In this document: positions 1,706 to 47,321 of the stretch, piece after piece
Layout: each line of letters opens with the position of its first letter
How positions within the stretch are numbered: position 1 is the first letter of the stretch
Assembly (NCBI GenBank): GCA_017991375.1
Contig: JAGOQP010000006.1
Coordinates: forward strand, 3,200-67,199
Direction: 5' to 3'
Origin: Minisyncoccota bacterium
Lineage (GTDB): Bacteria > Patescibacteriota > Minisyncoccia > UBA6257 > JAGOQP01
Length of the DNA: 64,000 bases
Made by a program: the position numbers and the translations under genes
Notes under the pieces: generated by a model
Seen by the model: the letters and a program-made list of their open reading frames with translations, nothing else
Told to the model about the DNA's origin: nothing
Database searches by the model: none

Positions 1706-3523
1706 ATGGACACATCTTTTTTTGCTCCCATGCAACTCCGGTCGAGAAAAGGGTTTACGCTTACTGAGCTGCTTATTTATTTGGGAATTTTTGCGATAGT
1801 CGCGGGGACGCTCACTGGCATACTCACTACGGTCACCCGTACCCAAGTTCAAGAATCATCCCAAACGACAGTTACGGGAGAATTAAACTTTTCAATGCAA
1901 ACCATTCAACGACTCGTGCAAGAGTCAAGTTTGATTGACATACCGACAGGAACCGCTACCTCCACTCTTGTGCTTAAAATGAAAGACGCGCAAGATCCAT
2001 CGGGAGATCTTTCAAAGATATACTACACAAAAATATACGCAAGCAATGGACGCATCTATGTGGAAGAGCAACCCAATACCGCGCAACCAATCACGAGCGA
2101 TAAGGTGGTAGCTAACACACTTGAATTCAAAAAGTTCACTCAATATCCCGGAAAAGATGTGGTGCAAATTGATTTGGCATTATCTGACGCGATACAAGTG
2201 GCGGGACAGACAATTACTCGCTCATTGCGCTCGGCAATATCACGCGCGTCGGCAGCTACGTTTGATTCCGACTTGCTTCCTGGCACGGATAACACATACT
2301 CCATTGGCACATGGCCAACCCCTCGATGGAAAGATGCTTCGTTTTCGGGATTGATGACGATAGGAAACACCTCTTCTGGTGGGACGCTTAAGTTGATCGG
2401 GAAAACGGGAACCTCTTTGGACTACACCATTGACACTGCCACGGGAGGATATCTCCGATTCAAATCGGCAAGCGCAACCGCGACACCATTTGTTATTACC
2501 AGTTCGGGAAATATAGGCATCGGAACAAGCTCTCCGATATATGCTTTAGATGTTTCGGGAATTATCAGCGCGGCACAACAACCGGGAAGCACAAGTAGCG
2601 CAATGATTATTGTTAATCAAAAAAATGTTGCCGGAAGTTACGGCGCGTGGGGCATCGCGTCACGCAACGCGAGCAATCTTGGTTTTTATAACTGGGGTAG
2701 AGGTGGAGACGCGCTTACTATCACCGCAAGTAGCTCAGGGTTTGTTTTTAATTTTAATGGAAGTCGTCTTACCAATCTTGTCTCGCCCACTGCCAGCAGT
2801 GACGCGGCGACGAAAGAATACGTTGACGCCGCCGCTGGTGGAGGAGCATCAAAATCACAATACTTTTCATCTAGTGGCACGTTCACGGTACCTTCTCAAG
2901 TAACACTAGTATGGGTGACCGCATGGGGTGGCGGCGGTGGCGGCGGTGGCGGATGTCAAGCAACTGCGGGCGCAAGTGGAGGCGGAGGAGGAGAAATCGT
3001 ATACCGTTACCCGGTGACGGTAACTGGAGGGCAAAATATTACGGTAACCATTGGATCAGGTGGTAGTGGCGGCGCATACCAAACAGCAACATGTCTTATA
3101 TCATCAGGAACAAATGGATCTGATACTACATTTGGATCTTATGTAACCGCAAAAGGTGGTATAGCAGGATATGGTAGTGGTGGAGCTGGTGGAGGTGTTG
3201 GGGGAGGAGATGGAGGAACCGAGGGAGTAAATGGATCACGAGGAATATACTCAGCATACACTATGGGTGGCGCTGGGGGTGGCGGTGGATCAGATAGTAG
3301 CGGAAACGCGAGTGATGGAGGACCGTCCCCAATGTACGCGGGAGGAATAACAACACATAATGTCCGCCGTGGTGGAGGTGGCGGCGGTGGGTTTAAAGGA
3401 GTCGGCGGAAACGAATCAACATCGGCCGCGGCAAACACAGGAGCTGGAGGCGGTGGCGGAAGTAGCGGTGCATCAGGAGGAAATGGTGGCTCAGGAGGAG
3501 TTATTGTTGAATGGGTGGAATAA
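1706..3523 (+). CDS. Type IV pilin / pseudopilin-like protein with a prepilin N-terminal methylation motif and a very large Gly-rich C-terminal domain
   Basis: The N-terminus MQLRSRKG|FTLTELLIYLGIFAIVAG is a classic prepilin leader plus hydrophobic helix; 1730 is an alternative start. The C-terminal 250 aa is poly-Gly/Ser with in-frame GGT/GGC triplet runs at 2925-2960 and 3360-3390. Confidence 0.7.
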   Translation: MDTSFFAPMQLRSRKGFTLTELLIYLGIFAIVAGTLTGILTTVTRTQVQESSQTTVTGELNFSMQTIQRLVQESSLIDIPTGTATSTLVLKMKDAQDPSGDLSKIYYTKIYASNGRIYVEEQPNTAQPITSDKVVANTLEFKKFTQYPGKDVVQIDLALSDAIQVAGQTITRSLRSAISRASAATFDSDLLPGTDNTYSIGTWPTPRWKDASFSGLMTIGNTSSGGTLKLIGKTGTSLDYTIDTATGGYLRFKSASATATPFVITSSGNIGIGTSSPIYALDVSGIISAAQQPGSTSSAMIIVNQKNVAGSYGAWGIASRNASNLGFYNWGRGGDALTITASSSGFVFNFNGSRLTNLVSPTASSDAATKEYVDAAAGGGASKSQYFSSSGTFTVPSQVTLVWVTAWGGGGGGGGGCQATAGASGGGGGEIVYRYPVTVTGGQNITVTIGSGGSGGAYQTATCLISSGTNGSDTTFGSYVTAKGGIAGYGSGGAGGGVGGGDGGTEGVNGSRGIYSAYTMGGAGGGGGSDSSGNASDGGPSPMYAGGITTHNVRRGGGGGGGFKGVGGNESTSAAANTGAGGGGGSSGASGGNGGSGGVIVEWVE

Positions 3524-3537
3524 AAATAAATCAAAAA

Positions 3538-3570
3538 CCCCTTTGTATCACGCAAGAGGGTTTTATTTTT
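3538..3570 (+). terminator. Rho-independent terminator of the pilin-like gene
   Basis: CCCCTTTG-tatcacg-CAAGAGGG hairpin followed by TTTTATTTTT, immediately after the stop at 3521-3523. Confidence 0.6.
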
Positions 3571-3669
3571 GAAAATAATATTTTATAATCGTTTCAGACC
3601 TGGGGAAAAGAGCTGGCCGATCTTTTCCTCGTTCCCAATGCCCTACCGCATGGGAAGGCCTTAGCGGCT

Positions 3670-3750
3670 GCCGCAAGAGTCAGGTGGTCAAGTAGCGCAA
3701 GCGAACGACCTTGTACACATTATCCTGACGCAGTTCTTGCGGCTTTTTTT
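3670..3750 (+). ncRNA. Candidate small structured RNA or compound terminator
   Basis: A long imperfect hairpin runs gccgcaaga-GTCAGG-tGGTC-aagtaGC-GCAA-GCgaac-GACC-...-CCTGAC-gcagt-tcttgcggc and is followed by T7. It carries a GNRA-type GCAA apical loop. It stands apart from the pilin terminator and has no ORF. Confidence 0.3.
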
Positions 3751-3819
3751 ATTTTATTTACTATAAACACTCTTTATTCTTCTGCTTCACTGGTTTGACT
3801 ACACCCATCCTTCAACTAT

Positions 3820-4233
3820 TTATCTACCGTGACATTTCTTATATTTCTTGCCCCGTATGAATCCTCTACATCCCTTTGAGTCACAACAGCATTTAAACGG
3901 CTCTTCAATGTACGCGATTTTGTCATAATCAATGGTAATTTCTTCTCCTTTTTTAATGTCTTGTAATGCATACCCGATTCTTTCTCTTTCTTCAACATTC
4001 GGCTCGCAAGAGTGATTGATATAACTCCCTGGTGGCTCAATAATTTCATACTCATCCTCCCCGATTTGATCAAGATGTACTTTGTCCCTCTCTGAAAGAT
4101 TTTGAATATCGTCAAAATCAACAACTTTTCCTTTTTTCAAAACATACAAAACATCGCCTTTCTTAAAATCTTTTAAGGCGAATAGTCCATTTCCGTGTTT
4201 ATCGCTTTTCTTGATTTCTATAAATTGATTCAT
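3820..4233 (-). CDS. SET-domain protein (lysine methyltransferase-like) with post-SET CxCx4C and a SEC-C-like KKYKKCHG tail
   Basis: GNGLFA, NHSCEPN, EITIDY and CCCDSKGC motifs. The C-terminal GKKYKKCHGR is nearly identical to the SecA C-terminus in this window (GKKYKKCHGK). Confidence 0.8.
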   Translation of the reverse strand: MNQFIEIKKSDKHGNGLFALKDFKKGDVLYVLKKGKVVDFDDIQNLSERDKVHLDQIGEDEYEIIEPPGSYINHSCEPNVEERERIGYALQDIKKGEEITIDYDKIAYIEEPFKCCCDSKGCRGFIRGKKYKKCHGR

Positions 4234-4253
4234 ATTACTTACAATAACACCTC

Positions 4254-4751
4254 TTATACTTCTTTCCCATTTTCAAGAAAAGTCACTTTCTCTGAGAAGT
4301 TTAGAAGTATCTTAGACAATCTATTTACCATTGTTGGGGTCAACAATTGATAAGCCTCGGCTATATCAACATATCTAGCATCACCAATTTCTTTTGATGG
4401 AGCAATCTCTGTTAATTCCTTTCTTGATAATTCCTGTCCTTGAAAAATAAATATGACCTCACCGTCTTCTCCGATATTTCGATATTCAATTCCAACCAGT
4501 TTGAAATAGTGCGAAGGAAGGTTTAACGATATTTCTTCTTTAATCTCTCTTAGAAGTCCCTGTATTGGAGTTTCTTGTTCCTCAACTCCTCCGCCAGGAA
4601 GTCCGAAATAATCAGAATCTAGATCTTTCAATACAAGAATCTGTCTCTTGTTCTTTAGAAATATTGCTCTTGAAGTTAGATGAATCATTTTATTTCCCAT
4701 GGCATTTCTTATCCTCCTCACTAAAGCTACGGATGGATTGCAAAATGTCAC
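4254..4751 (-). CDS. NUDIX hydrolase
   Basis: Nudix box GLPGGGVEEQETPIQGLLREIKEEISL (GX5EX7REUXEEXGU). GTG start at 4751, or ATG at 4700. Confidence 0.8.
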   Translation of the reverse strand: MTFCNPSVALVRRIRNAMGNKMIHLTSRAIFLKNKRQILVLKDLDSDYFGLPGGGVEEQETPIQGLLREIKEEISLNLPSHYFKLVGIEYRNIGEDGEVIFIFQGQELSRKELTEIAPSKEIGDARYVDIAEAYQLLTPTMVNRLSKILLNFSEKVTFLENGKEV

Positions 4752-4772
4752 TTACCGTGACATTTCTTGATC

Positions 4773-5267
4773 TTATTCCTGTGTCCACAGGGAATTTATA
4801 TCATCTGGTAGATGATCTATCCCCTGGAATTCCTTCACGACAATTGATTTTATTCCCTGCCTGATTTCCGGCTTTACATAAGTTATTGTCATTTCTTTTT
4901 CCCCGCCTATACTTTCGCAATCGTCCTCGATAAGAATATCTGGGATAACCTTTTCGGCTATATCTTTGTATAATTCCCCACCTTCCCTGAACAACACCAT
5001 TCCATCTGGGAAATTATACTTTTTCAAAACTGATTTATCCTTTTCTACATCAACCGCCGATTCATGGGAACTCAAGTAGATAATTTCTGCACCCTGTCGT
5101 TTCCAATTGTTCAACTTTTCTAAAGCATTTCCTACAGGGATATAGGATTCATAATCAAGAACTGACTCTTCTCGTTCCATACTTTGCCGCACTCGTTCCT
5201 CTCGAGTCTTTCCTGTCGCGTTTCTATGCATAATTGTTGTTCCATGAAGGAAAATCAATATTTTCAT
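4773..5267 (-). CDS. Hypothetical protein (MKILIFLHGTT...), possibly frameshifted before a C-terminal SEC-C zinc motif
   Basis: ORF 4773-5312 trimmed to the MKIL start to avoid overlap with secA. In the adjacent frame, directly across the stop, the sequence reads IPCGHRNKIKKCHGK* (4748-4792), a SEC-C motif. Confidence 0.5.
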   Translation of the reverse strand: MKILIFLHGTTIMHRNATGKTREERVRQSMEREESVLDYESYIPVGNALEKLNNWKRQGAEIIYLSSHESAVDVEKDKSVLKKYNFPDGMVLFREGGELYKDIAEKVIPDILIEDDCESIGGEKEMTITYVKPEIRQGIKSIVVKEFQGIDHLPDDINSLWTQE

Positions 5268-5271
5268 AGTT

Positions 5272-7860
5272 TTATTTTCCGTGACACTTTTTATATTTCT
5301 TGCCGGAGCCACAAGGGCACGGATCGTTTCTGCCTACGTGTTGGCCATTACCAACGACGCCACTCGCCCCTGTCTTGTTCGCACTCATTTGTGTCTTGTT
5401 AGTGTTTATCTGTGTTCCTCGAAAGACATTGGTAAACACCCACATTTGAGCATTTGCAATAAGATCCTTAAAAAGCCCATAGCTTTCGCGCTTATATTCA
5501 ACAAGTGGGTCTTTTTGACCATAGGCACGCATACGTACCGATTCCATAAGTGCCTCCAAGCTGTCCAGGTGGTTAACCCAAAACATATCAAATGCCGACA
5601 ATATACGCGCTCCTATGGTGGCATCACCAACTACCGTGACAATTTGTTCCTCTATGACGTTGGGGAGTTTTTGTTTTGCTCTTAGAAGAGATATTACCTC
5701 TTCGTTTAGCGCTTCCTCGTTTATAGACAATCCGCTGTCGGAACAAAACCGAGCGAGATCAAAAGAAAGCACGTGCTCCTGCTGATCATTATCGGAATGA
5801 ATGCCTGATTCCCACGCAACAACAAACCGAGAGAGTGTTTCCAAGGTGATATCCCTAAGAACCTCAGCGCTTTCCCCCATCTCAATACGCTCAAGCATAT
5901 GTTGGCGCCGACGATACACCGCGCTCCGTTGTTTGTTGAGTACATCGTCATATTCAAGAAGATGCCGCCGCGCATCAAAGTTAAGCCCTTCAACTTTTTT
6001 CTGCGCTTCTTCAACCACGCGAAGCACGATTCCCGATTCGATTGGCACATCATCGGGCATGTTGAGTCGCGTCATTAACGATTGAACACGCTCACCACCA
6101 AATATTCTCATAAGATCATCTTCGAGCGAGAGGAAAAATTGTGTTTCACCTGGATCCCCCTGTCTTCCCGCGCGTCCACGTAATTGATTATCAATACGAC
6201 GTGCCTCGTTGCGTTGCGTACCAAGCACAAAAAGTCCCCCACATTGTTTAACATGTTCGGCCTTGATCATATCAATGGGGTTTCCACCAAGCACAATATC
6301 AACTCCTCGACCGGCCATATTAGTCGCAAGCGTTACCGCCCCAGGGCGTCCCGCTTGGGCGATAATTTCTCCTTCTCGTTCATGATTCTTCGCGTTGAGT
6401 ATTTCGTGACTAACACCCGCGTGAAGCAATTGTGCCGATAGTAATTCGTTTTCGTCGATAGAAGTAGTACCAATAAGCACGGGCTGTCCTCTAAGTGCCC
6501 GCTCTTTAACCACGCGAACGATCTGATCGTATTTAACCTCTTTGTTTTTAAAAATGAGATCTGGTCGATCGGTACGCTGGCGCGGCTTGTTGGTAGGAAT
6601 AGTAACAACGTCAAGATGATACACTTTGTGAAATTCTTCACTAGACGTTGCGGCTGTTCCAGTCATGCCCGATATTTTTTCGTATAAACGAAAATAGTTT
6701 TGAATCGTAATCTGCGCGTATGTTTTTGATTCCTCCTTAATTGCTACTCCTTCTTTTGCCTCTATGGCCTGGTGCAATCCGCCTGAGTATCGTCTTCCAG
6801 GCATCAGACGACCGGTAAACTCATCGACAATAATAACTTCTCCATTTTTTATCACGTAATGCCTATCACGAGAAAAAAGCGCCTTGGCTTTGAGTGATTC
6901 ATCAAGATAGTGAACCAATCGCGCATGTTGGGTATCGTATATGTTCTCGATAGAGAGCGCCTTTTCAATAGCGGCAATACCGGCATCAGTTATTTGTACT
7001 GAGCGTGCTTTTTCGTCTACCACATAATCGCTGTCTCGAGAGAGCCCGCCGACCAACCGAGCAAAAATCTTATAGTACTCCCCCGCCTGCGTGTCTGGAG
7101 CCGAGATAATAAGCGGCGTGCGGGCCTCGTCAATAAGAATACTGTCCACCTCATCAATAATGGCAAAATAGCGCCCCCGCTGAACCTGTCCAGAAACAGA
7201 ATAGGCAAGATTATCCCGCAGGTAATCAAATCCAAACTCGTGGTTAGTCCCATAAACGATATCGGTTTGATATGCTTCTTTTCGAGAAACGGGTTTTAGA
7301 AATTCTTTTTGCACGCGAAAACTTCCGGTGGTGTCACGCTCCTCGTCGATAAGCACATCGCCCTCGGGCGCTATCGTCCATGAGGGATCATACATAAACG
7401 CATGATCATGGATAATACACGAAGTACTCATTCCAAGCGCGTGATAAATCTGCCCCATCCACACCGCGTCACGTTGCGCGAGATAATCATTAACTGTAAT
7501 AACATGAACTCCTTTTTTAGTGAGTGCGTGCAGATACGCGGGAGCGGTAGCCGCGAGCGTTTTTCCTTCACCAGTACTCATTTCCGCGATAGCTCCTTGA
7601 GCGATAACCATACCCCCCATTAATTGGACATCAAAGTGGCGTTGTCCCAAAGTGCGTTTTGCCGCCTCTCGCACAAGAGCAAATGCTTGCGGAAGCGCGT
7701 CATCCAATGATTGCTGCCCTGAGCGTACCGATTCTCCAAGGCGTACGCTTTCTTGACGTAACGCATCCAAAGAAAAGTCGGCATAGGTATGCTCATACGC
7801 CCCAATCGCTTCCACGCGCTGGCGATAACGCCGCATCGGATCAAAAAACCGTTTAAACAT
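5272..7860 (-). CDS. secA: Preprotein translocase ATPase SecA
   Basis: 862 aa with full-length SecA architecture, DEAD-like motor motifs, and the C-terminal zinc motif CPCGSGKKYKKCHGK. Confidence 0.95.
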   Translation of the reverse strand: MFKRFFDPMRRYRQRVEAIGAYEHTYADFSLDALRQESVRLGESVRSGQQSLDDALPQAFALVREAAKRTLGQRHFDVQLMGGMVIAQGAIAEMSTGEGKTLAATAPAYLHALTKKGVHVITVNDYLAQRDAVWMGQIYHALGMSTSCIIHDHAFMYDPSWTIAPEGDVLIDEERDTTGSFRVQKEFLKPVSRKEAYQTDIVYGTNHEFGFDYLRDNLAYSVSGQVQRGRYFAIIDEVDSILIDEARTPLIISAPDTQAGEYYKIFARLVGGLSRDSDYVVDEKARSVQITDAGIAAIEKALSIENIYDTQHARLVHYLDESLKAKALFSRDRHYVIKNGEVIIVDEFTGRLMPGRRYSGGLHQAIEAKEGVAIKEESKTYAQITIQNYFRLYEKISGMTGTAATSSEEFHKVYHLDVVTIPTNKPRQRTDRPDLIFKNKEVKYDQIVRVVKERALRGQPVLIGTTSIDENELLSAQLLHAGVSHEILNAKNHEREGEIIAQAGRPGAVTLATNMAGRGVDIVLGGNPIDMIKAEHVKQCGGLFVLGTQRNEARRIDNQLRGRAGRQGDPGETQFFLSLEDDLMRIFGGERVQSLMTRLNMPDDVPIESGIVLRVVEEAQKKVEGLNFDARRHLLEYDDVLNKQRSAVYRRRQHMLERIEMGESAEVLRDITLETLSRFVVAWESGIHSDNDQQEHVLSFDLARFCSDSGLSINEEALNEEVISLLRAKQKLPNVIEEQIVTVVGDATIGARILSAFDMFWVNHLDSLEALMESVRMRAYGQKDPLVEYKRESYGLFKDLIANAQMWVFTNVFRGTQINTNKTQMSANKTGASGVVGNGQHVGRNDPCPCGSGKKYKKCHGK

Positions 7861-9681: not shown

Positions 9682-9759
9682 TTTTTTGTGAGTTAAGTGA
9701 GTGCTCGGTCACCGTCTAACCAGTATACCAAAACAAATCATAAGAGCAAGTACAAAAAA

Positions 9760-9787
9760 CCCACCCCCGACGTTAGTCGGGGGTGGG
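9760..9787 (-). terminator. Rho-independent terminator downstream of the gtrA-like gene
   Basis: Perfect 12-bp stem CCCACCCCCGAC-gtta-GTCGGGGGTGGG, followed by a T-run on the minus strand. Confidence 0.6.
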
Positions 9788-14382: not shown

Positions 14383-15009
14383 TCAAAGGGAATCGCAAGA
14401 AAAAACCTGACCGCCCCCGATCCAGTCATTCGGGTCGTCAAGCGAATTTGAGCTGACGTACCAAACGCCATAGCCGGCGTTCCAGTTGACGCCAACTGCC
14501 CAAAGCATGCCCTCGGCGCCTCGAACGTAGAAAATGTTGGGAACGCCGTTAGTTAGAAGCAACCCACTCTGACCTTGACCTTGGAGCTTCAACAACTCCC
14601 AGATCTTGGAAAGTGTGGTCTCCACCTTGGCCTCATCTCCGCCCAACTCGGCTATGATGGGGATGTCGCGGGTGGTATGGCGAAGACGGTAATAAGAGAG
14701 CTTTTGCTCTCCAGATGCTTCCTCCACCTTGGTGAGAAAACGCTCTATGAAATTTCTCCCCAGCCAACCAATCTTGACCGGGGCGCCATTGCTCGTATCC
14801 ACCCTAAAGTGATGGGCGGCGACAAATCTACTTGTTGCCGGCACCGTGACGGCGGACACGAAGTCCAAAAGCTTTTTGGCTGCAGTTTTGTCGGCTTCGG
14901 TAACCGTCACAATCAGATCGCCGGACAGGATACGCTCGACGACCGCCTCGCCGCCGAGCTTGTTGAAGATTGCTTCCACGTGACCTAATGTGAACCTTCC
15001 GTATTTCAT
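14383..15009 (-). CDS. Hypothetical protein, family A (paralog of 20569-21072); member of the conserved-promoter gene set
   Basis: 208 aa with strong RBS GGGAGAAGGAA. About 45% identical to the 20569-21072 product across IGW.G..F.E.FL.KVEE.S....LS...L......PI..ELGG......TL.KI...L..QG.GQ.G.LLTNG..NIFYVR. Confidence 0.7.
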   Translation of the reverse strand: MKYGRFTLGHVEAIFNKLGGEAVVERILSGDLIVTVTEADKTAAKKLLDFVSAVTVPATSRFVAAHHFRVDTSNGAPVKIGWLGRNFIERFLTKVEEASGEQKLSYYRLRHTTRDIPIIAELGGDEAKVETTLSKIWELLKLQGQGQSGLLLTNGVPNIFYVRGAEGMLWAVGVNWNAGYGVWYVSSNSLDDPNDWIGGGQVFSCDSL

Positions 15010-15083
15010 TTCCTTCTCCCTTCCCCGGCTTTTTGCCAGGAAACTTCCCTCTACCCGAGGTTATAGGGTCGCGTTACGCGAGG

Positions 15084-15140
15084 TTTTTAGTGTGCATTAC
15101 GTCTAATTTTTATACCACATATTATGCTATTTGGTCAAGC
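15084..15140 (-). promoter_or_regulatory. Conserved near-consensus promoter plus leader, copy 1 (drives gene A)
   Basis: On the minus strand: TTGACC (15133-15138), the 18-nt spacer aaatagcataatatgtgg, TATAAA (15109-15114), then the leader attagacgtaatgcacactaaaa. A 40-nt block is identical to the copy at 23926-23982. Confidence 0.65.
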
Positions 15141-20520: not shown

Positions 20521-20548
20521 GACCCCAAGGCACGAATGCCAAGGGGTT
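20521..20548 (-). terminator. Hairpin terminator of gene A' with a central TT-TT mismatch and UUCG loop
   Basis: Minus strand: CCCCTTGGCA-ttcg-TGCCTTGGGG followed by TCTTTTTTTT. Confidence 0.55.
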
Positions 20549-20568
20549 ATGAAAACAAAACCAAAGAA

Positions 20569-21072
20569 TCAACGAGGATTACGAGAGAAAACCTGAGAGT
20601 CAGCGTCGTAACTCAAAAGACAAGACAACGACCTAGATTCGATACCCCAAAAATCGCCGCCCCAGTAAAGGAAAACCGAACAGAGTTCGCCATAAATATC
20701 ACGAACATAGAATATGTTGAAGTGTCCATTAGTCAGAAGAATACCACCTTGCCCACGCCCCTGGGACACAAGAAATTTATTGATCTTAAAAAGAGTCGTT
20801 TCGATTCCATCTTCGCCACCTAACTCAGAGACAATAGGGGCATCACAAGAAGCTCTCGTGAGAGTAAAGATTGAGAGATTGTGATCTTCTGACATCTCCT
20901 CCACTTTGGGCAGAAAATGCTCAGTAAAATGAGGCCCAATCCACCCAATGAGAACGGGTTCATGTTCCGATTCATAAAGACGAAAGTGACGAATGGCGAT
21001 AAAGTTGGCTGGACTTTGAATCTTGATAGCGCCAATGGGTTCAAGAAGACGGATTACCGAGTTTTTATCCAT
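20569..21072 (-). CDS. Hypothetical protein, family A' (paralog of 14383-15009)
   Basis: 167 aa. Its own promoter is TTGACT-18 nt-TATTAT (21137-21166) with a related leader gaacgcacattaactaaaag. Confidence 0.7.
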   Translation of the reverse strand: MDKNSVIRLLEPIGAIKIQSPANFIAIRHFRLYESEHEPVLIGWIGPHFTEHFLPKVEEMSEDHNLSIFTLTRASCDAPIVSELGGEDGIETTLFKINKFLVSQGRGQGGILLTNGHFNIFYVRDIYGELCSVFLYWGGDFWGIESRSLSCLLSYDADSQVFSRNPR

Positions 21073-21136
21073 TGCGCCCCCCTTTTCTTCCGATGATTCA
21101 TCGGATTCTTTTAGTTAATGTGCGTTCTACAATCAT

Positions 21137-21166
21137 ATAATATCACACATCATACCATTCAGTCAA
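21137..21166 (-). promoter_or_regulatory. Promoter of gene A' (same -35/18-nt/-10 architecture as the conserved promoter family)
   Basis: TTGACT (21161-21166) and TATTAT (21137-21142) with an 18-nt spacer. Confidence 0.5.
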
Positions 21167-21233
21167 GATTAAGCGGTAATGTGTTTATATAAGTTCATCT
21201 CCCTGTTATTGATCGTTAGTGGTTAGTCATCAG

Positions 21234-22277: not shown

Positions 22278-22440
22278 ATAAGTTGGATGTAAAACAATAA
22301 ACGTGGAACGGACAATAAACTGAGACTAACGACCGAAGATTGTTTCCCTGTCTCTGATCAAGAATTAATGGCTAAGGATTATTATTTTATTCCATTGTTG
22401 GTCGTAAGTTGTGAGTTGTTAGTTGGCGCATTCGTAGCCA

Positions 22441-23096: not shown

Positions 23097-23138
23097 GGGA
23101 CCAAGGATTCACGTGTGGGACACGGGAATCCAAGGTCC
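23097..23138 (-). terminator. Hairpin terminator of gene B; GGACCTTGG...CCTTGGTCC type with a central TT-TT mismatch
   Basis: Minus strand: GGACCTTGGATTC-ccgtgtcccacacgt-GAATCCTTGGTCCC followed by TTTTTTG. Same architecture as the hairpin after the DGR VR. Confidence 0.55.
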
Positions 23139-23161
23139 TACCTATCAGCGAGTGAAGTGTG

Positions 23162-23791
23162 CTACTTGCCAGAGACCGCCAAACGCCTGTTCCGACCGAG
23201 ACAGTTATTCACCTTTTGCCAATATAGATGCCAACCCTTGTCGCTTTGGTCCAGATACGGATAGTAACGGTGGCCACCCTTGCCGAAGACGATGAGCCCC
23301 GGACCATCGATGCAGATCTTCCCCCGTAACCCCATGATGGCAGGAAATTCGTTCTGGTGATCTACCAGCCACATAAGGTGCTGATAGCCAAGCATCTGAC
23401 CGGCAAGAGGAGAACGGCGACGTTCGTACTCGAAGCCGTTAACAAACTCCTCTTCTGAACGAAGCACTGTCCCGAGGATGAGCGTGAGAGCATCAACGGG
23501 CGAGGTGTCGCTCTCGATGCCCCTATTCCAGGAAAACTTCACCTTGAGGTCGGCGAGAATGGGTCGTGGGAGGGCGGGGATGGGAATGGAAAGTGGTTCC
23601 AGTTGGCGAAAAAAATAGCCACTTTCGCTCACCCGAAAACCCCCTCGGATGAAGAGGGAGAATTCTCTCCCCGTCTGTTTGGGATTGACAATACCGACCT
23701 GAACCTGCTCAATCGATAGCTGGCTCCAGTCGGTGTTGGCGGCCAAAGCCGCCAACAAGGTAAACACCTGTTCATTACTCGGACAAGGCAT
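23162..23791 (-). CDS. Hypothetical protein B (Trp/Tyr-rich C-terminus); member of the conserved-promoter gene set
   Basis: Start trimmed to MPCPSNE, with GGGGGAG RBS. It ends ...GCAAG-TAG, like the DGR target gene. C-terminus GWHLYWQKVNNCLGRNRRLAVSGK. Confidence 0.6.
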   Translation of the reverse strand: MPCPSNEQVFTLLAALAANTDWSQLSIEQVQVGIVNPKQTGREFSLFIRGGFRVSESGYFFRQLEPLSIPIPALPRPILADLKVKFSWNRGIESDTSPVDALTLILGTVLRSEEEFVNGFEYERRRSPLAGQMLGYQHLMWLVDHQNEFPAIMGLRGKICIDGPGLIVFGKGGHRYYPYLDQSDKGWHLYWQKVNNCLGRNRRLAVSGK

Positions 23792-23925
23792 AATTTTCTC
23801 CCCCACGGCGGACTTTAACGCTCATGCTTTATTGCAGAACGTTTCCTCTTCGCCGCAGTATTTAGAACACAAAACAATTATGTCCTAAGCACTGCGGCAA
23901 GTATCACAACTAATACCCAAGCAGT

Positions 23926-23982
23926 ATTTTAGTGTGCATTACGTCTAATTTTTATACCACATATTATAGTAGTAGGTCAAGA
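23926..23982 (-). promoter_or_regulatory. Conserved near-consensus promoter plus leader, copy 2 (drives gene B)
   Basis: TTGACC (23975-23980), spacer aaatagcataatatgtgg, TATAAA (23951-23956), leader attagacgtaatgcacactaaaatac. Confidence 0.65.
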
Positions 23983-24010
23983 TTTGATGAGTCGACGTGT
24001 TTATTATAAA

Positions 24011-24043
24011 CAACCAACCCCGACGTTACGTCGGGGTTGGTTG
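24011..24043 (-). terminator. Rho-independent terminator of the BNR-repeat gene
   Basis: Perfect 14-bp stem AACCAACCCCGACG-tta-CGTCGGGGTTGGTT. It is related to the 9760-9787 hairpin. Confidence 0.55.
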
Positions 24044-24107
24044 TCCTTGATGCTATGTAATAAATTATCCGTTGTTGGTTGTGTGTTGTCAGTTGTAAGT
24101 CAACGCT

Positions 24108-26200: not shown

Positions 26201-26316
26201 ACGATTTAATGAGCTTCATTTACCCTCATTCGGGTCTGATCCTGAGGACTCATCCCTCAGAGTCTAAGACAAAGCAAACAACAAATTGTCGTAAGTTGTG
26301 GGTTGTTAGTTGTATG

Positions 26317-27327
26317 TTATTTCTTGTTAAGCAACGTGCGTTTGTAGACATCTAAGTGGCTGAGAATAAGTCCGGTGCCCTTAGCGACACAAAAAAGCGG
26401 CTCTTCGGCGACATACGCATTTACCCCAAGTGTGCGTTTTAAAAACGCGGGCAAGTTTTCTATATGAGCACCCCCACCCGAGAGAATAACCCCTTTTTCC
26501 ATAATATCGGCAACAAGCTCAGGGGGTGTTTGATTAAATACTTGCTGAATAGCTGAAGCAATCTCCACTAATTGCGGATGGAGCGCTTCGGCAATTTCAT
26601 TTGAAGTAATCATGAGATCGCGTGGTAAACCAGACGTCACATCGCGTCCGCGCACATGATGTTCTTTCTTTGAGCGAGTTGAAATAGCCGAACTAATGGC
26701 AATTTTTACATTCTCGGCGGTTTGCTCTCCGATATAGAGCGAGTACTTTTTCTTGATGTATTCCGAAATCGCCTGATCAAATTTGTTTCCCGCGATACGC
26801 AAGCTCGCCCACGAAACAATGTTCCCCAACGATACCACCGCCACTTCACTTGTTCCGCCACCGATGTTGATAATCATATTTCCCGAATGCGAGTTTATAG
26901 GGATACCTGCTCCCAACGCAGCCAGTAGCGGTTCTTTGACAATGTATGCTTGTTTGGCACCTGCTTCGACCGCGGCGTTTTCAACCGCGCGTCGCTCAGT
27001 TTGCGTGATACCCGCGGGAACGGATATAACTACGTCTGGTTTGATAAACGCGTTAAACGAACCAGCCGCTTTAACAATAAAATATTTTAAAAGCGCCTTG
27101 GTAATGTAGTAGTCGGCAATCACCCCATCTTTGAGAGGTTTGTAAGCGACAATATCAGCGGGGGTTTTTCCGATCATATCCTTTGCCTCGCGTCCCACGG
27201 CAATCACTTTATTATCAGGAGCAGAAAGCGCGACCATGGTGGGTTCGTTGATAACAAATCCTCGCGAGGGAACAAAAACAACGGTGTTTGCTGTCCCGAG
27301 GTCAATACCTATTTTTTTGGTAAACAT
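26317..27327 (-). CDS. Second MreB/Mbl-family actin-like protein
   Basis: KKIGIDLGTANTVVFV... Full-length MreB fold, 336 aa, about 50% identical to the mreB at 18140-19180. Confidence 0.85.
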   Translation of the reverse strand: MFTKKIGIDLGTANTVVFVPSRGFVINEPTMVALSAPDNKVIAVGREAKDMIGKTPADIVAYKPLKDGVIADYYITKALLKYFIVKAAGSFNAFIKPDVVISVPAGITQTERRAVENAAVEAGAKQAYIVKEPLLAALGAGIPINSHSGNMIINIGGGTSEVAVVSLGNIVSWASLRIAGNKFDQAISEYIKKKYSLYIGEQTAENVKIAISSAISTRSKKEHHVRGRDVTSGLPRDLMITSNEIAEALHPQLVEIASAIQQVFNQTPPELVADIMEKGVILSGGGAHIENLPAFLKRTLGVNAYVAEEPLFCVAKGTGLILSHLDVYKRTLLNKK

Positions 27328-27635
27328 GATGGAGTAATCGTTAATCTTTGACTATTAATCGTTGACCAGAAGTGGGGGAAGGTCGTTGTATTGATTATTT
27401 ATCTTTAATCGTTAACTACTGACTGAAAGTGGCAAAAACAACCACTAATTATTAATTTGTATCCTCGTTAGATTTTAACAACAGCATGCTTCTTGAGTAA
27501 AGGATTAACAGTCAATAGTCAATGATTGTTCTTGCCATCCTACCCCCTTTTTTCACAAAAATCAAAGTTTTATGTACAAAAAGAGCCCCCCAGCATTTGC
27601 CCTTCGGTTAAGGATTAATAGTCAATGATTAATGA

Positions 27636-34327: not shown

Positions 34328-34640
34328 TATGTGTAAGCTAATAACTAATAACACGACGGGCAATCGCCCATCTTGGTAACTAGTACCAATCAGCAAGATT
34401 GATATACGTCCGTTTAATATGCGCTACGAAACGTGATTAAAGAGACAAAAAGCCACTTTTACCACACGCATAAGAGCTAGCGTGATAAGAGAACACCACG
34501 CCAACAGTGCAAAAACTATACCAGAAAAGAGTGCGGAGTGTCAAATTGAGCAGTGGTTAGTGAACAGTGACTAGTAGTCAACGAAAGAAGTAATCATTTA
34601 TCTTTAATCATTAACCGGGGCTCATCGTTTTACGTCTTGC

Positions 34641-36492: not shown

Positions 36493-36681
36493 ATAAGATA
36501 AGTATAAAGGGGAAGGGAGAAAATGGAAAGAGAAACAGACGATCATTCATCTTTGATCCTTAATCCTTAACCACATCCTATAGCTCGTTCCACGTGCCCT
36601 TCCGTAGTCCGCCCTTGGCGGACGTAGGAGGGCTAATCACTATTTTTGTCCTTCGACAAGCTCAGGACGAGCTTGCGCTTG

Positions 36682-44758: not shown

Positions 44759-44855
44759 GAAATAAGTATAGAGTGAAAAGTGAGATGTGGAAAGCTCTCC
44801 TATACTCATCTTTAATGATTTTTTCTGCTTTCCACTAACCACTGATCACTACTCA

Positions 44856-45989
44856 CTATTGAATAACCCCTCCCCCTAACGCACGTCCCCAGTGAGAATA
44901 AAACACCGCCGATTGCCCAGACGCGGGAAACAATTTTTCTTTTGAACCAAACAAAAGAGTGCCGTTTTGCGTTGAGCCCGCGCCAACGAGCGTTGCGCGT
45001 AAAAGTCGTTGACGATATCGCACACGAACAAGACAGTTAACGCGTTGTTTGTGATCGTACGTCGCACGCGAAGCGCTATCAAGCCAATTAATATCAGTGA
45101 TAGCGCACTCATTGCCATACAAACATTCATCACCCTCATATGCGACAATGAGTTGATTACGCGTAATATCTTTTTTTACCACATAGTACGATTTTCCTGC
45201 TGTGTTTGAAAATCCATGCTTCTGACCGACAGTATAAAACCATACCCCATCGTGCTCACCTACTTTTTTGCCATGCATATCGATAATATCGCCATGAGTA
45301 ATGGGAATGTTGTTTTTGAGAAATTCATCAAACTTAAACTTTCCTAAAAAGCACACCCCCTGTGAATCTTTTTTATCTGCCGTTGGAATCCCAGCTTTGC
45401 GCGCAATAGCGCGCACTTTCTTTTTGGTCAGATGCCCAATAGGAAAGAGAATTTTTTCAAATCGCTCGCGCGGAACCTGCCACAAGAAATATGTTTGATC
45501 TTTTGATAAGTCATTTGCCTGGTAGAGAGCATGCTCTTTTTGTATCAACCACTTACCAAAACTAACTTTTGTTTTTAGACGAGCATAGTGCCCAGAGGCG
45601 ACATAATCGGCACCCAACTCTATGGCCTTATCAAAAAACAGCCCGAATTTGATAGCGCTATTGCACACCACATCGGGATTTGGCGTGATGCCCTTTCTAT
45701 AACCATCTAAGAGATACGACACCACGCGCTGTTTATATTCTTTTTCAAGATCAAAAACATAAAAAGGAATACCCAAGTGTTGGGCTACCCGTCGAGCATC
45801 CTCTCCCTCCTTATCTTGACAGCCATCAACATTGTACCCACGAATAAAGCCGCCGATCACTCGATATCCTTGTTTTTGCAAAAGCAATGCCGCGACAGAC
45901 GAATCCACGCCTCCAGACATCGCAACGAGAACTTTTTTATTTTTTTTATTTTTGGAAAACATTTCTTCTAAGGTTATATGTATTTCCAT
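44856..45989 (-). CDS. mnmA: tRNA-specific 2-thiouridylase MnmA
   Basis: PP-loop KVLVAMSGGVDSSVAALLL; the C-terminal domain is conserved. The start may be at 45962, which overlaps the RT 3' end by 17-44 nt. Confidence 0.9.
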   Translation of the reverse strand: MEIHITLEEMFSKNKKNKKVLVAMSGGVDSSVAALLLQKQGYRVIGGFIRGYNVDGCQDKEGEDARRVAQHLGIPFYVFDLEKEYKQRVVSYLLDGYRKGITPNPDVVCNSAIKFGLFFDKAIELGADYVASGHYARLKTKVSFGKWLIQKEHALYQANDLSKDQTYFLWQVPRERFEKILFPIGHLTKKKVRAIARKAGIPTADKKDSQGVCFLGKFKFDEFLKNNIPITHGDIIDMHGKKVGEHDGVWFYTVGQKHGFSNTAGKSYYVVKKDITRNQLIVAYEGDECLYGNECAITDINWLDSASRATYDHKQRVNCLVRVRYRQRLLRATLVGAGSTQNGTLLFGSKEKLFPASGQSAVFYSHWGRALGGGVIQ

Positions 45990-46929
45990 GCTTTATCAAT
46001 CCAAGATAGGAGTTGACAACTTGAGAGCTGTTAGTAGTCCGCAGTTTTTTTATCATCTTTCTTTTTGTGGAAGTTCTCAGGATTCTGTGGTCAGGAAAGG
46101 AAACCCAACCAAGAAAGTCGATGCCCGAAGATAATGCTTTTATAGAAACCTTGCCGGAATGAAGATGAAGTTTAAGGTTATGTTCGAGGAAATGGGATGT
46201 TTGGGAGATGAGGTTGATGAGATAATCCCTGTTTTCCGACAAAACAACAAAATCATCCGCGTATCTGATGTAACACTTCACTCTGAGGATATGCTTTATA
46301 TATTGATCAAAGGAGTTCATATAGACATTAACAAAGAGCTGGGAAGTGAGATTCCCAAGGGGAAGACCAACATCATCTTTTGTTGAGTGAAAACTGTTTA
46401 TGATTTCTTCAAAAAGCCAGATAATACCCTTGTCTGGAATGTACTGTTTGAGAGTAGAGATAAGAATTTGATGGTCTATATTGTCAAAGAACCTTCTGAT
46501 ATCACACTTGAGAGCCCAACAGGTTTTGGTGTTGTTCTGGCTGACTATATAAAAATAATTTCTGAGTTGATTTATGGCCTTGTGAGTTCCTTTATTGAGA
46601 CGACAAGAATAAGATGTATGGGAGAAAGTTTTATCAAAGAAGGGATAAAGGATTCTGTAGATGGCATGGTGTAATAATCTGTCTCTAACTTGAGCTTTGC
46701 TGATAATTCGAGGTTTAGGGTCAGATATTTTGAATTGTTCGTATCCTCCGTGTTTGTAGGTTTTGTTTTGAAGATCGTTACGAAGTGATATAATATTATT
46801 CATCAGTTGGAATTGAAATAACTGGACATCAGATTTGTTTCTTTTTCCTCTGATAAACTCCCTCCAGGCGAAAAGCAGATTATCAATACTGATAATATCT
46901 TCAAAGTTATGATTCAATATAATTTTCAT
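45946..46929 (-). CDS. Diversity-generating retroelement reverse transcriptase
   Basis: Collinear similarity to Bordetella phage bRT: NLLFAWREF.RGKR, DPKPR.IS...RDRLLHHAI, YSCRLNKGTH, motif A CDIRRFFDNIDH, motif B GLPLGNLTSQLFVNVY (the DGR SQ variant), motif C IRYADDFVVL, and GIDFLGW. Confidence 0.88.
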   Translation of the reverse strand: MKIILNHNFEDIISIDNLLFAWREFIRGKRNKSDVQLFQFQLMNNIISLRNDLQNKTYKHGGYEQFKISDPKPRIISKAQVRDRLLHHAIYRILYPFFDKTFSHTSYSCRLNKGTHKAINQLRNYFYIVSQNNTKTCWALKCDIRRFFDNIDHQILISTLKQYIPDKGIIWLFEEIINSFHSTKDDVGLPLGNLTSQLFVNVYMNSFDQYIKHILRVKCYIRYADDFVVLSENRDYLINLISQTSHFLEHNLKLHLHSGKVSIKALSSGIDFLGWVSFPDHRILRTSTKRKMIKKLRTTNSSQVVNSYLGLIKHGNTYNLRRNVFQK

Positions 46930-46945
46930 AAAGATTTTTCTTTAA

Positions 46946-46955
46946 CCCCCCCCCC
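46946..46955. repeat. C10/G10 homopolymer tract in the divergent RT/avd promoter region
   Basis: cccccccccc lies 17 nt upstream of the RT start codon and between the putative -35 and the TATAAT (46968-46973) of avd. Confidence 0.8.
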
Positions 46956-47317: not shown

Positions 47318-47321
47318 AAAC

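Follow-up and report, generated by a model that had tools for sequence, protein, structure and literature searches.

Background

In the leader of an rRNA operon, boxA, the binding site of NusB/NusE with an 8-nt core that these proteins recognise, precedes the 5' strand of the long-range helix that serves 16S processing. DGRs abound in the candidate phyla radiation, and the cis elements known at the VR end, an IMH and a downstream hairpin in Bordetella phage BPP-1, are DNA signals at the VR 3' end. Repeated or mobile promoters are near-identical promoter segments that lie upstream of non-homologous genes. To our knowledge, the transcription of DGR target genes and of the RNA of the template repeat (TR) is essentially undescribed.

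Besides rRNA operons, boxA precedes CRISPR arrays (PMC7665894) and is part of the suhB 5' UTR (PMC5725501). The CRISPR boxA was shown experimentally to prevent Rho termination (Stringer et al. 2020, PMC7665894); in that study, comparison with the rRNA leader of the same species served to validate divergent boxes. The suhB boxA acts up to 100-200 nt from the ribosome-binding site, and its outcome is translational repression and Rho termination, not antitermination (PMC5725501). In E. coli, the changes C4T/T6C and C4A abolish boxA function (PMC5725501). Substitution by transversion is not accepted at the positions equivalent to G, C and the next U (PMC3177189).

The window, a 64-kb stretch of DNA analysed here as a whole, has four copies of the module TTGAC-N18-(TGn)TATAAW-N13-GCACRYTAA on its minus strand, upstream of the genes A, A', B and T. 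Judged from its sequence, the block is a predicted sigma-70-type promoter together with the first ~35 transcribed nt of DGR variable-protein genes of Patescibacteria (Paceibacteria-type). Its architecture resembles that of an rRNA-operon leader, with a strong predicted promoter, a box of the GYTCTTTRANAA type, predicted to be largely unpaired, within some tens of nucleotides of the transcript start (of canonical sequence in many homologous leaders of DGR targets), a segment complementary to the 3' end of the enclosed gene, and long untranslated structured RNA. Unlike in an rRNA operon, the enclosed gene is a protein-coding DGR variable-protein gene, the window boxes (GCACRYTAA) deviate at three of ten positions, and the putative helix is short, at 8-13 bp. 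The likeness to the CRISPR-array boxA (PMC7665894) lies in a putative boxA-type leader element at an adaptive or hypervariable locus that is not ribosomal and makes long untranslated RNA; the differences are that the element described here is a candidate from sequence, that the downstream RNA is mostly mRNA, and that orphan genes without a TR keep the box. The suhB boxA (PMC5725501) likewise belongs to a protein-coding gene, in its 5' UTR; by that precedent, if it held here, the module would lower and not raise expression of the variable protein.

DGR-associated genes and their shared promoter module

T (47798-48391, minus strand) encodes 197 aa and is the active DGR target, with its VR at 47794-47933. 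The VR and the TR (47322-47461, minus strand) form a 140-nt pair in which 13 of the 15 mismatches fall at TR adenines. The gene for the accessory protein bAvd (PF22296; 46991-47317) is on the plus strand, opposite to T, and the DGR reverse transcriptase gene (RT, with an RVT_1 domain; 45946-46929, minus strand) adjoins the target region. The same target-bAvd-RT arrangement is present in the related loci L001, L087, L089 and L094. The VR is followed by a hairpin (47742-47788, minus strand) with arms GGGACCTTGGAG and CTCCTTGGTCCC, a tandem T.T mismatch and then a T-run, and similar CCTTGG hairpins follow B and A' in the window and the VRs of L085, L087, L089, L090 and L095. A terminator-like hairpin with a T-run also lies directly after the TR (47298-47314, minus strand), ahead of the RT gene. 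P0032 is a second T-like gene of the same MAG.

A (14383-15009, minus strand; 208 aa) belongs to a family whose members are DGR targets at 26 or more of 50 related loci, where TR copies with adenine-specific mismatches lie ~330 nt downstream. A' (20569-21072, minus strand; 167 aa) is a paralogue of A. B (23162-23791, minus strand; 209 aa; locus tag KBC26_02720) represents a family with a hypervariable C-terminal scaffold, which bAvd and RT genes follow in L087, L089 and L094; a scan of viral contigs with the B-family alignment gave no match. The set is not one of generic hypothetical genes, as the preliminary description had it, but comprises three families of DGR variable proteins, of which T is active and A/A' and B are targets in relatives; the idea that these genes belong together and are tied to the DGR is supported. 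None of A, A' and B has a TR copy in the window, and their lack of TR similarity rules them out as further targets of the window TR. Plain paralogy with co-diverged promoters is ruled out for A versus B and T, between which hhalign and BLASTP detect no similarity; it does hold for A and A', which are 43% identical in protein and 60% in the module.

An unbiased repeat search of the window returned a single 55-nt family with four members on the minus strand, at 15085-15139 (A), 21113-21167 (A'), 23927-23981 (B) and 48578-48632 (T), whose identities to copy A are 100%, 60%, 93% and 69%. The module had been reported upstream of A, B and T, with a related copy at A', and this is borne out. Copy A consists of a -35 hexamer TTGACC (15133-15138), an 18-nt TGn spacer, a -10 hexamer TATAAA (15109-15114) and the box GCACACTAAAA (15085-15095). 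The stop codon of the PBP2 gene upstream of A (15127-15129) lies inside this spacer. Copy B shares TTGACC (23975-23980), TATAAA (23951-23956) and the box GCACACTAAAA (23927-23937) with copy A, and the two are identical over the 41-mer ATAATATGTGGTATAAAAATTAGACGTAATGCACACTAAAA (15085-15125 and 23927-23967), one nucleotide more than the 40 originally counted. Copy T, the predicted promoter of the DGR operon, has TTGACA (48626-48631), TATAAT (48602-48607) and the box GCACGCTAAAA (48578-48588), and is the sole 12/12 promoter match within 44800-49400. The diverged copy A' has TTGACT (21161-21166), TATTAT (21137-21142) and the box GCACATTAACT (21113-21123), so that the TTGACT-18-TATTAT geometry at 21137-21166 is as claimed.

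TTGACM-N18-TATAAW has exactly three matches in the 64 kb (15109-15138, 23951-23980 and 48602-48631), where shuffled sequences lead one to expect 0.01, and GCACRYTAAMW is found without mismatch only at the four module sites. The concern that the block might be a generic repeat scattered at non-promoter sites is met by the finding of no copy outside promoter positions. All four copies score 10-12 of 12 in the hexamers, with an 18-nt spacer, as befits promoters of the sigma-70 type, and all have TG 1 nt upstream of the -10, giving an extended -10. They lie 58-204 nt upstream of same-strand start codons with Shine-Dalgarno sequences. With a start assumed ~7 nt after the -10, the leaders recompute to ~93 (A), 58 (A'), 153 (B) and 204 nt (T), and the earlier range of 65-180 nt needs correction.

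A near-consensus TTGACA-17/18-(TGn)TATAAT promoter lies upstream in 65 of 80 related loci. By this comparison of predicted promoters, the hexamers, the extended -35 (TTGACAAA) with TGn, and TATAAT are the usual promoter shape of the gene class. The spacer sequence beginning aaatagcata, described as part of the common module, is present in A and T only, the 5' half in B being different (tactact). Conservation does reach beyond the hexamers into transcribed sequence, but much of what is conserved in the spacer appears to be the promoter shape of the class combined with copying or gene conversion. The exact motif of the window type has no match in the 80 related loci. A metagenome-wide search for TTGAC-N17-19-TATAMW-N13-GYACRCTAAAA, in a collection that does not have the window genome among its members, found four loci, one of them from a sister species (L082, with upstream sequence identical to that of L001) and the others at chance level.

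The leader box and its resemblance to boxA

De novo EM motif discovery in the first 60 transcribed nt of 75 homologous leaders gave G[TC][TA]C.TT[GA]A.A, a predicted leader motif that resembles boxA (GYTCTTTRANAA). At 8 bits or more, the motif is present in 52 of the 75 family leaders and in 2 of 56 control promoters. Matches to GYTCTTTRANAA at 10 or more of 11 positions number 15 in 3.9 kb of leader starts and 171 in 1.87 Mb elsewhere, a ~42-fold difference, and the boxA consensus is matched at 9 or more of 11 positions on the sense strand of 30 of the 75 leaders and on the antisense strand of none. The box lies 6-43 nt from the -10 in homologous leaders and 14 nt from it in the window. This location, on the sense strand of the transcribed leader and near its 5' end, with no fixed promoter geometry, is that of boxA. 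The variable offset and the restriction to the sense strand fit an RNA signal and not a promoter site of fixed geometry. The preliminary description had left the choice between a regulator-binding site and an RNA element; the strand bias, the offset range and the presence in 52 of 75 leaders make an RNA element the best reading, and a DNA operator is not supported.

The window boxes themselves, GCACACTAAAA (twice, in A and B), GCACGCTAAAA (T) and GCACATTAACT (A'), are variants. G1, Y2, C4, T7, A8 and A9 are present in every box, and T3 and T5 in none; A, B and T also lack T6, and the A' box has T6 but not A11. They agree with GYTCTTTAANA/GYTCTTTRANAA at seven of ten specified positions, which is short of the boxA consensus. 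Their position-weight scores are 8.6-9.9 bits, a level that ~35 chance matches elsewhere in the window also reach, and as candidate sites they are marked out only by their position and their alignment with homologous leaders. In manual alignments, GTTCTTTAC..CTACTTGTT of L087 aligns with GCACATTAAAATACTACTTGTT of L086 and GCACACTAAAATACTGCTTG of window B, and GTTCTTTAATATTGCGAG of L056 aligns with GCACATTAATAATTGCGG of L026 and GTACACTAAAATATATTGCGAG of L001. Canonical and variant boxes appear to replace each other at the same leader position.

Minimum-free-energy folds leave the box free of pairing in A and T and mostly free in A', and pair it weakly in B. The rpsL-operon leader of the same genome contains the canonical-looking boxA strings TCTCTTTAATCA and GCTCTTAT, which argues against a lineage-wide shift of boxA specificity. 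The rRNA leaders available for comparison are from two distant relatives only, L026 (AGAACTTTAAAAA) and L080 (ATTGAAAACT). There is no rRNA operon in the window or its retrievable flanks (2.4 kb beyond the window, which also hold no further module), and neither nusB nor rho is among the window genes scanned against Pfam (64 kb, part of the ORFs). Rfam covariance models, those of the RT-associated motifs among them, detect at the gathering score only tRNAs in the window and 10 related loci, with no meaningful sub-threshold matches in the leaders or the VR-TR spacer. Box scores are equal in loci with and without a nearby TR, so read-through to the TR and RT could not be the sole role of the box, and a box that serves solely for such read-through is unsupported.

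Leader structure and complementarity to the gene end

The T leader (48392-48595, minus strand; ~204 nt if the start is near 48595) is predicted to fold into a very stable long hairpin at ~48492-48560 (z = -6.3), and the B leader (23792-23944, minus strand; ~153 nt) has a nearly perfect ~51-nt hairpin near 23850-23900 (z = -5.3). In the A leader (15010-15102, minus strand; ~93 nt) the box is followed by a small hairpin and by two hairpins adjoining the ribosome-binding site, CCUC-GGGUA-GAGG and CCUGGC-AAAAA-GCCGGG, which are kept with compensatory changes in A-family leaders. A hairpin is predicted within a few nt of the box in all four window leaders, as in lambda nut, where boxA is followed by the boxB hairpin; unlike in lambda nut, no N protein is found here and the hairpin sequences are not conserved among the four leaders.

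In T, the leader segment directly 3' of the box (ACTACTTGTGGAA, 48564-48576, minus strand) can pair with TTCCGCAAGTAGT (47797-47809, minus strand) over 13 bp, including one G-U. This partner covers the last codons, the stop codon and 1 nt beyond, at the end of both ORF and VR, and it is the VR version, the TR copy differing at the helix centre. As with the BPP-1 cis elements, the site to which the leader is complementary is the 3' terminus of the VR, at which VR and TR differ, and a hairpin lies just downstream (47742-47788); unlike them, the complementary segment is in the 5' leader. No description of a 5'-leader segment complementary to the VR end was found in the literature searched.

In A, the segment AAAAACCT (15081-15088, minus strand), which overlaps the 3' end of the box, complements AGGTTTTT (14401-14408) near the end of the ORF over 8 bp (p=0.005 versus windows in the gene's own body). 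B has two segments within 23895-23924 (minus strand), CTGCTTG at 23918-23924 (paired manually) and TACTTGCCG at 23895-23903, and both complement the ORF end TGGCAAGTA (23163-23171) over 7-9 bp. The B pairing is weaker, with p=0.009 for the first 60 nt of the leader and p=0.1 for the full leader. When the longest contiguous pairing is compared with windows in each gene's own body, complementarity between leader and ORF end has p<=0.05 in 10-11 of 46 loci, and for 8 of the 11 significant loci the distance from the box start to the segment is 7-14 nt. Beside the stop codon, one A-U pair is swapped for G-C, and covariation is statistically weak (n=8), with a score as high as the observed one in 52 of 500 shuffles. 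RNAduplex comparisons of whole leaders with ORF tails are uninformative (median z -0.7), since long spurious duplexes appear.

Discussion

The leading explanation, which we put forward tentatively, is that the leader part of the module acts at the level of RNA, probably as a boxA (Nus-factor) site that has diverged and is flanked by a long-range 5'-3' helix, and that the promoter copies have been homogenised within each genome by copying or gene conversion. Nus binding, antitermination and the formation of the long-range helix are the steps that we infer. The nascent box would recruit NusB/S10, and a Nus-modified elongation complex would form in the way known from rRNA operons and CRISPR arrays. 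With it, RNA polymerase would get through the leader, which is long, untranslated and rich in hairpins, and in the T operon possibly also past the post-VR and post-TR hairpins towards the TR and RT. The complex may also keep the 5' leader near the polymerase, so that the leader pairs with the end of the ORF once that is made, much as the 16S leader pairs with the 16S 3' flank. No link of DGRs to the boxA antitermination machinery was found in the literature, and the one proposed here is read from sequence comparisons.

The strongest alternative, doubtful but deserving weight, is that the box is a conserved RNA element with a job outside the Nus system and that the boxA likeness in relatives is partial or coincidental. 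The element could form one strand, or a flank, of a 5'-3' helix by which the mRNA of the variable protein is circularised or marked; possible effects of the helix are processing by RNase III, a more stable mRNA, or a masked VR end that leaves only TR RNA for the RT to use. Alternatively, the box could bind a DGR-specific or other RNA-binding protein. The window boxes do miss positions that are critical for boxA in E. coli, while boxA strings of canonical appearance are present elsewhere in the same genome. Also in keeping with this alternative, the conserved element in the T and B families (..TAAAATACTACTTG) is longer than boxA, its 3' part complements the ORF end including the stop codon and in the VR rather than the TR version, and long, nearly perfect hairpins of the kind cut by RNase III follow the box. 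However, the significant complementarity (11 of 46 loci) uses the segment after the box or its 3' A-run and not the G..C..TT core, three T-/B-family loci (L085, L089 and L094) have no complementarity, and boxA matches at 9 or more of 11 positions in 30 of 75 leaders are hard to credit as coincidence.

It is unlikely that the leader has no special function and that a strong promoter was simply duplicated or gene-converted among genes of the DGR-target type, the identity in the leader being due to hitch-hiking. As with mobile promoters, A and B are identical at 41 of 41 positions, including the initially transcribed stretch (AATTAGACGTAAT), which in T is entirely different (CTGTTTGTTAAAA), in front of proteins without sequence similarity, and modules cluster by genome, not by family. 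Modules of different families within one genome are 86% (A-B in the window) and 79% (L001-L086 in the sister genome) identical, versus 67-76% for modules of the same family across genomes. Cassette positions on the chromosome also differ between the two genomes: at the efp-mnmA site there is T with the DGR here and a B-family gene in L086. Unlike mobile promoters, the modules are confined to one functional gene class, include a conserved transcribed element and have no transposon-like ends that could be seen. Hitch-hiking cannot account for the retention of a strand-specific motif by 52 of 75 leaders in which the surrounding sequence has diverged completely, and it leaves the complementarity to each gene's own 3' end unexplained.

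A DNA operator in the spacer and/or at +7 to +20, through which a dedicated transcription factor or alternative sigma factor would co-regulate a small regulon, is improbable: the spacer TTGACAAAATAGC recurs in family promoters of L013, L075 and L095 (the L095 promoter is identical to the window T promoter at 27 of 30 positions by manual count), the 18-nt spacer of all four window promoters is unusual, and a gene with sigma-70 region 4 and HARE-HTH domains lies 4 kb upstream of T, but homologues have the box on the sense strand only and at 6-43 nt from the -10, the B spacer differs completely from A and T in its 5' half although the B promoter otherwise equals that of A, the exact module was found in no other genome except that of the sister species, and none of the four modules contains an inverted repeat of at least 8 nt, which rejects a dyad-symmetric (dimeric) operator.

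Significance

If the diverged-boxA reading is right, a boxA-type leader would rank DGR operons with rRNA operons and CRISPR arrays as clients of the Nus machinery. It predicts that NusB-S10 binds synthetic leader RNAs and that metatranscriptomes contain read-through, both of which can be tested for uncultivable organisms. Three variable-protein families unrelated in sequence have a single type of promoter within each genome, which suggests cassette exchange or gene conversion among DGR targets, and a search for the module offers a simple way to spot former or remote targets.

A further-reaching version, speculative and on balance unlikely to hold in full, is that the DGR variable-protein genes of Patescibacteria may be miniature rRNA operons, with a boxA-type Nus site followed by a leader strand whose pairing partner is the far 3' end of the VR (the IMH side, with the stop codon), the ORF being enclosed in the helix. 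If true, Nus-modified transcription and RNA processing would be coupled to DGR biology. This could separate the VR mRNA from the co-transcribed TR RNA, and could mark or mask the VR end such that information passes only from TR to VR. The architecture would then persist on paralogues that are no longer targets and be homogenised between target genes within a genome. The complementarity between the leader and the VR end, if real, would be a new cis feature at the place where the directionality of DGRs is decided.

Promoter-leader modules of the window

The genes A (14383-15009), A' (20569-21072), B (23162-23791) and T (47798-48391), all on the minus strand, are each preceded by a module that joins a promoter to the start of the transcribed leader, as the preliminary description had reported. 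A blind repeat search returned a single 55-nt family with four members, all on the minus strand: module A (15085-15139, the reference copy, 100%), B (23927-23981, 93% identity to copy A), T (48578-48632, 69%) and A' (21113-21167, 60%). The identity claimed for the A and B copies holds over the 41-mer ATAATATGTGGTATAAAAATTAGACGTAATGCACACTAAAA, found at both 15085-15125 and 23927-23967. The pattern TTGACM-N18-TATAAW has exactly three matches in 64 kb where 0.01 are expected, and GCACRYTAAMW, which includes the conserved leader box GCACRYTAA, occurs without mismatch only at the four module sites of the window. All four spacers are 18 nt long, with TG one base ahead of the -10, and none of the four copies counted within these 64 kb of genome lies away from a promoter position. 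With the start assumed about 7 nt past the -10, the leaders measure about 93 (A), 58 (A'), 153 (B) and 204 nt (T).

The promoter spacer of module A, TTGACCaaaTAGcat, contains the stop codon (15127-15129) of PBP2, the gene upstream. The aaatagc string forming the PBP2 gene end there is also present, as non-coding sequence, in the T promoter, which looks as though the module supplied the end of the PBP2 frame. Two similar terminator hairpins, ACCCCCGACGTTAGTCGGGGGT (9755-9787) and CAACCCCGACGTTACGTCGGGGTTG (24008-24040), are present, the second immediately upstream of module B.

Genes and DGR families

T is a genuine target of a diversity-generating retroelement (DGR). Its variable repeat (VR, 47794-47933) differs from the template repeat (TR, 47322-47461) at 15 positions, 13 of them TR adenines, and the DGR includes the accessory gene bAvd (46991-47317, strand opposite to T) and a reverse transcriptase (RT, 45946-46929). 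None of the four proteins has a Pfam match, and hhalign and BLASTP found no sequence similarity between A, B and T. The A/A' family has 29 database relatives, the named ones from Paceibacterota or Minisyncoccia, with a conserved C-terminal scaffold and hypervariable positions. Of 50 related genome loci, 26 have a TR copy some 330 nt downstream, among them the closest relative, L001 (63% identity), and the mismatches are nearly all at TR adenines. The B family (46 relatives) has a scaffold of the same kind, and bAvd and RT come after the gene in loci L087, L089 and L094.

The four genes are thus members of DGR variable-protein families. They had been described as four hypothetical genes, one of them the DGR target; they comprise one active DGR target, T, and three orphan or former members, since the families of A, A' and B are DGR targets elsewhere and no TR-like copy of these genes occurs in the window. 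A further T-like protein of this MAG, P0032 (KBC26_00880), with 71% identity across 68% of T, is encoded outside the window on a different contig of 108 kb, so the window does not show all the members that this gene class has in the genome.

A boxA-like element across the gene class

When homologous leaders are aligned on the -10, the box lies 6-43 nt downstream (median 14). De novo EM motif finding in 75 leaders of 60 nt gave G[TC][TA]C.TT[GA]A.A, with G, C, TT and A near-invariant. This motif resembles the consensus of boxA, GYTCTTTAANA (PMC5725501), of which NusB-NusE bind an 8-nt core (PMC3177189). Scored with the literature consensus and not with the matrix trained here, matches of at least 10/11 number 15 in leader starts totalling 3.9 kb and 171 in the remaining 1.87 Mb, an approximately 42-fold enrichment, and several perfect matches among the latter are family leaders too. 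Matches of at least 9/11 occur on the sense strand of 30 of 75 leaders and on the antisense strand of none, the loci being homologous, so that such counts are not counts of independent events. Boxes of at least 8 bits are found in 52/75 family leaders vs 2/56 other strong promoters of the same loci, a comparison that is partly circular because the matrix is family-trained.

Canonical and variant boxes interchange at one leader position in manual alignments of the upstream sequences: GTTCTTTAC..CTACTTGTT (L087), GCACATTAAAATACTACTTGTT (L086) and GCACACTAAAATACTGCTTG (window B), and likewise GTTCTTTAATATTGCGAG (L056), GCACATTAATAATTGCGG (L026) and GTACACTAAAATATATTGCGAG (L001). Relatives of T carry GTACATTAAAATACTACTTGCG (L090) and GCACCCTAAAGTACTACTTGC (L091). 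The leader element is conserved, sense-strand, position-flexible and boxA-like across the class, and boxA sequence is present in a large fraction of the genomes.

The boxes of the window itself do not have a boxA sequence: they agree at 7 of 10 consensus positions, differing at T3, T5 and mostly T6. In E. coli boxA, C4T/T6C and C4A abolish function (PMC5725501), and the equivalent G, C and U positions do not tolerate transversions (PMC3177189). Their matrix scores are 8.6-9.9 bits, which about 35 chance sites in the window equal. They occupy the boxA-like slot yet match boxA poorly in sequence, and appear to be a diverged version. The rpsL-rpsG-fusA operon has a leader (34440-34500, minus), downstream of its promoter (34515-34544), that contains canonical-looking boxA strings, TCTCTTTAATCA and GCTCTTAT (also given as TGTCTCTTTAATCAC and AGCTCTTATGCG). 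For 16S, the upstream sequences come from two distant relatives, L026 (AGAACTTTAAAAA) and L080 (ATTGAAAACT).

Complementarity between the leader and the end of the gene

The leader sequence adjoining the box is complementary to its own gene's 3' terminus. In T, ACTACTTGTGGAA (48564-48576) and TTCCGCAAGTAGT (47797-47809) are reverse complements over 13 bp, one pair being G-U; the latter takes in the final codons of the ORF and VR, their stop codon and one base past it. The pairing fits the VR version; the corresponding TR sequence, GAAAGTCGT, would interrupt the helix in the middle. The CTACTTG/CAAGTAG pairing is also found in L086, L087, L088, L090, L091 and L095. The base preceding CTACTTG and that following the stop codon change in step (A-U in four sequences, G-C in three). 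In the T and B families the stop codon is part of the complementary stretch. Among A-family leaders, those of the TTGCGAG type pair with the SRN codons closing the ORF, as in L001 (ATTGCGAGAGAA with TTCTCTCGCAAT), L045 and L056. In the window, A has an 8-bp pairing, AAAAACCT/AGGTTTTT (15081-15088 with 14401-14408), B has two options of 7-9 bp (23895-23924 with 23163-23171), the CTGCTTG option being a manual pairing, and the 8-bp match of A' falls short of significance.

With windows from each gene's own body as the control, p<=0.05 is attained at 10-11 of 46 loci where about two are expected, and the complementary segment lies 7-14 nt from the box start in 8 of 11 significant loci. Covariation is weak (n=8): 87.5% of cells are paired vs 22-56% in slid registers, and 52 of 500 shuffles reach the score. 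A helix between leader and ORF end is a well-motivated hypothesis on these sequences. It is rather unlikely that some other role at the RNA level, built around the 5'-3' pairing, accounts for the box; the complementarity is in its favor.

Other structures of the leaders and the DGR operon

Structure prediction leaves the box of A and T unpaired and that of A' mostly so, and pairs the B box weakly; a hairpin is predicted after the box in all four leaders. Very stable long hairpins are found in the B and T leaders (z -5.3 and -6.3). The DGR region has no strong minus-strand promoter other than the T module. The VR is followed by a long hairpin with a T-run (47742-47788, minus), and after the TR, ahead of RT, comes a terminator-like hairpin (47298-47314), so RNA polymerase starting at the T promoter would have to get past both structures to reach TR and RT. 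Box scores are equal in loci with and without a detectable TR; read-through to TR/RT is therefore not the sole purpose of the box.

Hairpins directly 3' of variable-protein ORFs carry CCTTGG in both arms, giving tandem T.T (U.U) mismatches. They occur at 47742-47788 (T), ~23110-23150 (B) and ~20525-20550 (A'), and after the VRs of L085, L087, L089, L090 and L095; B and A' thus retain a DGR-type 3' hairpin without a TR in the window. Similar CCTTGGAG/CTCCTTGG hairpins are present in the 5' leaders of L048, L069 and L038. The non-coding VR-TR spacer of about 330 nt (window 47462-47740, minus) is constant in length across loci and, compared with L090 and L087, has the conserved stretches cggatattaggttcgtatgcg ... 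ccgaattctg ... aatgagag; it looks like the structured 5' part of a DGR RNA. The A leader has two hairpins just upstream of the RBS (15022-15066, minus), CCUC-GGGYA-GAGG and then CCNGGC-loop-GCCNGG, a motif shared by the A-family leaders of L001, L002, L056, L040, L024, L045, L029, L036 and L035, with compensatory changes in three of the four pairs of the CCUC/GAGG stem. Other A-family leaders have a long ttcgccacagcagaaa...tttcctgctgtggcgaa hairpin in common. Rfam has no family for the leaders, the VR-TR spacer, the two-hairpin motif or the ttcgccacagcagaaa...tttcctgctgtggcgaa hairpin.

Promoter form and apparent copying of modules

The promoter is of the consensus type. A near-consensus promoter lies at most 650 nt upstream of the family gene in 65 of 80 related loci, typically TTGACA(AA)-17/18-TGnTATAAT. 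TTGACAAAATAGC is found again in L013, L075 and L095, and the L095 and window T promoters are identical at 27 of 30 positions by manual count. Of the spacer conservation that had suggested a shared regulator site or RNA element, part is the usual promoter shape of the gene class, as the 65 loci and the recurrence of TTGACAAAATAGC indicate, and the rest looks like copying. A equals B through the initially transcribed AATTAGACGTAAT, where T is unrelated; the 5' half of the spacer is common to A and T, not B, and the post-box TACTNCTTG to B and T, not A. Module identity within a genome is 86% (A-B, window) and 79% (A-family vs B-family, sister genome), against 67-76% for the same family across genomes. 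The modules are thus homogenised within genomes. A copied promoter with no function beyond that is an unlikely explanation; homogenisation speaks for it, and the class-wide conservation of the leader element speaks against it.

A DNA operator is very improbable, none of the four modules having an inverted repeat of at least 8 nt. Some 4 kb upstream of the T promoter, a gene with sigma-70 region 4 and a HARE-HTH domain (52276-53304, minus) may encode a DNA-binding regulator, though nothing ties it to the modules.

Genomic context

The window is part of an NCBI MAG named Candidatus Pacebacteria bacterium (locus tags KBC26_). The four loci are single-gene insertions amid same-strand housekeeping genes: mreB-mreC-PBP2-[A]-galT, rseP-[A']-aminoacyl-tRNA synthetase, BNR protein-[B]-frr and efp-[T, TR, bAvd, RT]-mnmA. 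The sister genome GCA_041664185.1 (L086) has a syntenic efp-murC-[..]-mnmA-cobA-comEC site with a B-family gene and without RT; the efp-mnmA interval holds T with TR/bAvd/RT in the window (44856-49332) and murC with the B-family gene there (2812-6890). In L001, the A homologue of the sister lineage, TR, bAvd and RT lie between ybeY and ftsA. Since the sites differ between the lineages, the cassettes change places, by movement or by exchange. At its 5' end the T leader (TAAAATACTACTTGT) is like B-type leaders, and the efp-mnmA site suggests a cassette replaced behind a retained promoter and leader start. Low-complexity repeats (GTTGTTAGTTGTG..., AATCATTAATCATTGACTATTAATCC...) recur between many window genes (22401-22425, 24057-24095, 26288-26326, 27336-27416, 34592-34623, 36541-36572, 55693-55734 and 61744-61792); the copies at 55693 and 61751 are 93% identical over 42 nt.

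Possible function

A Nus-type reading of the box is preferred tentatively, at somewhat less than an even chance. The nascent box would load NusB/S10, and the Nus-modified elongation complex would protect transcription across the long untranslated leader and downstream of it. The complex would also tether the leader to the polymerase and may thereby favor the 5'-3' helix, as has been proposed for 16S rRNA. Alternatively, the same element could repress translation in the manner of suhB (PMC5725501).

The closest systems to a Nus-type leader of this kind are rRNA leaders, boxA upstream of CRISPR arrays (PMC7665894), the boxA of the suhB 5' UTR (PMC5725501) and lambda nut sites. The literature searched contained no paper joining DGR and boxA; papers with both "DGR" and "antitermination" show no apparent connection of the two in their titles and abstracts, and the DGR passages of PMC5737381 concern RT-associated RNA motifs. 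The element is classed as a boxA-type leader on DGR variable-protein genes that has diverged in the window, because boxA sequence is found in a large fraction of genomes with the gene class and not in the window boxes.
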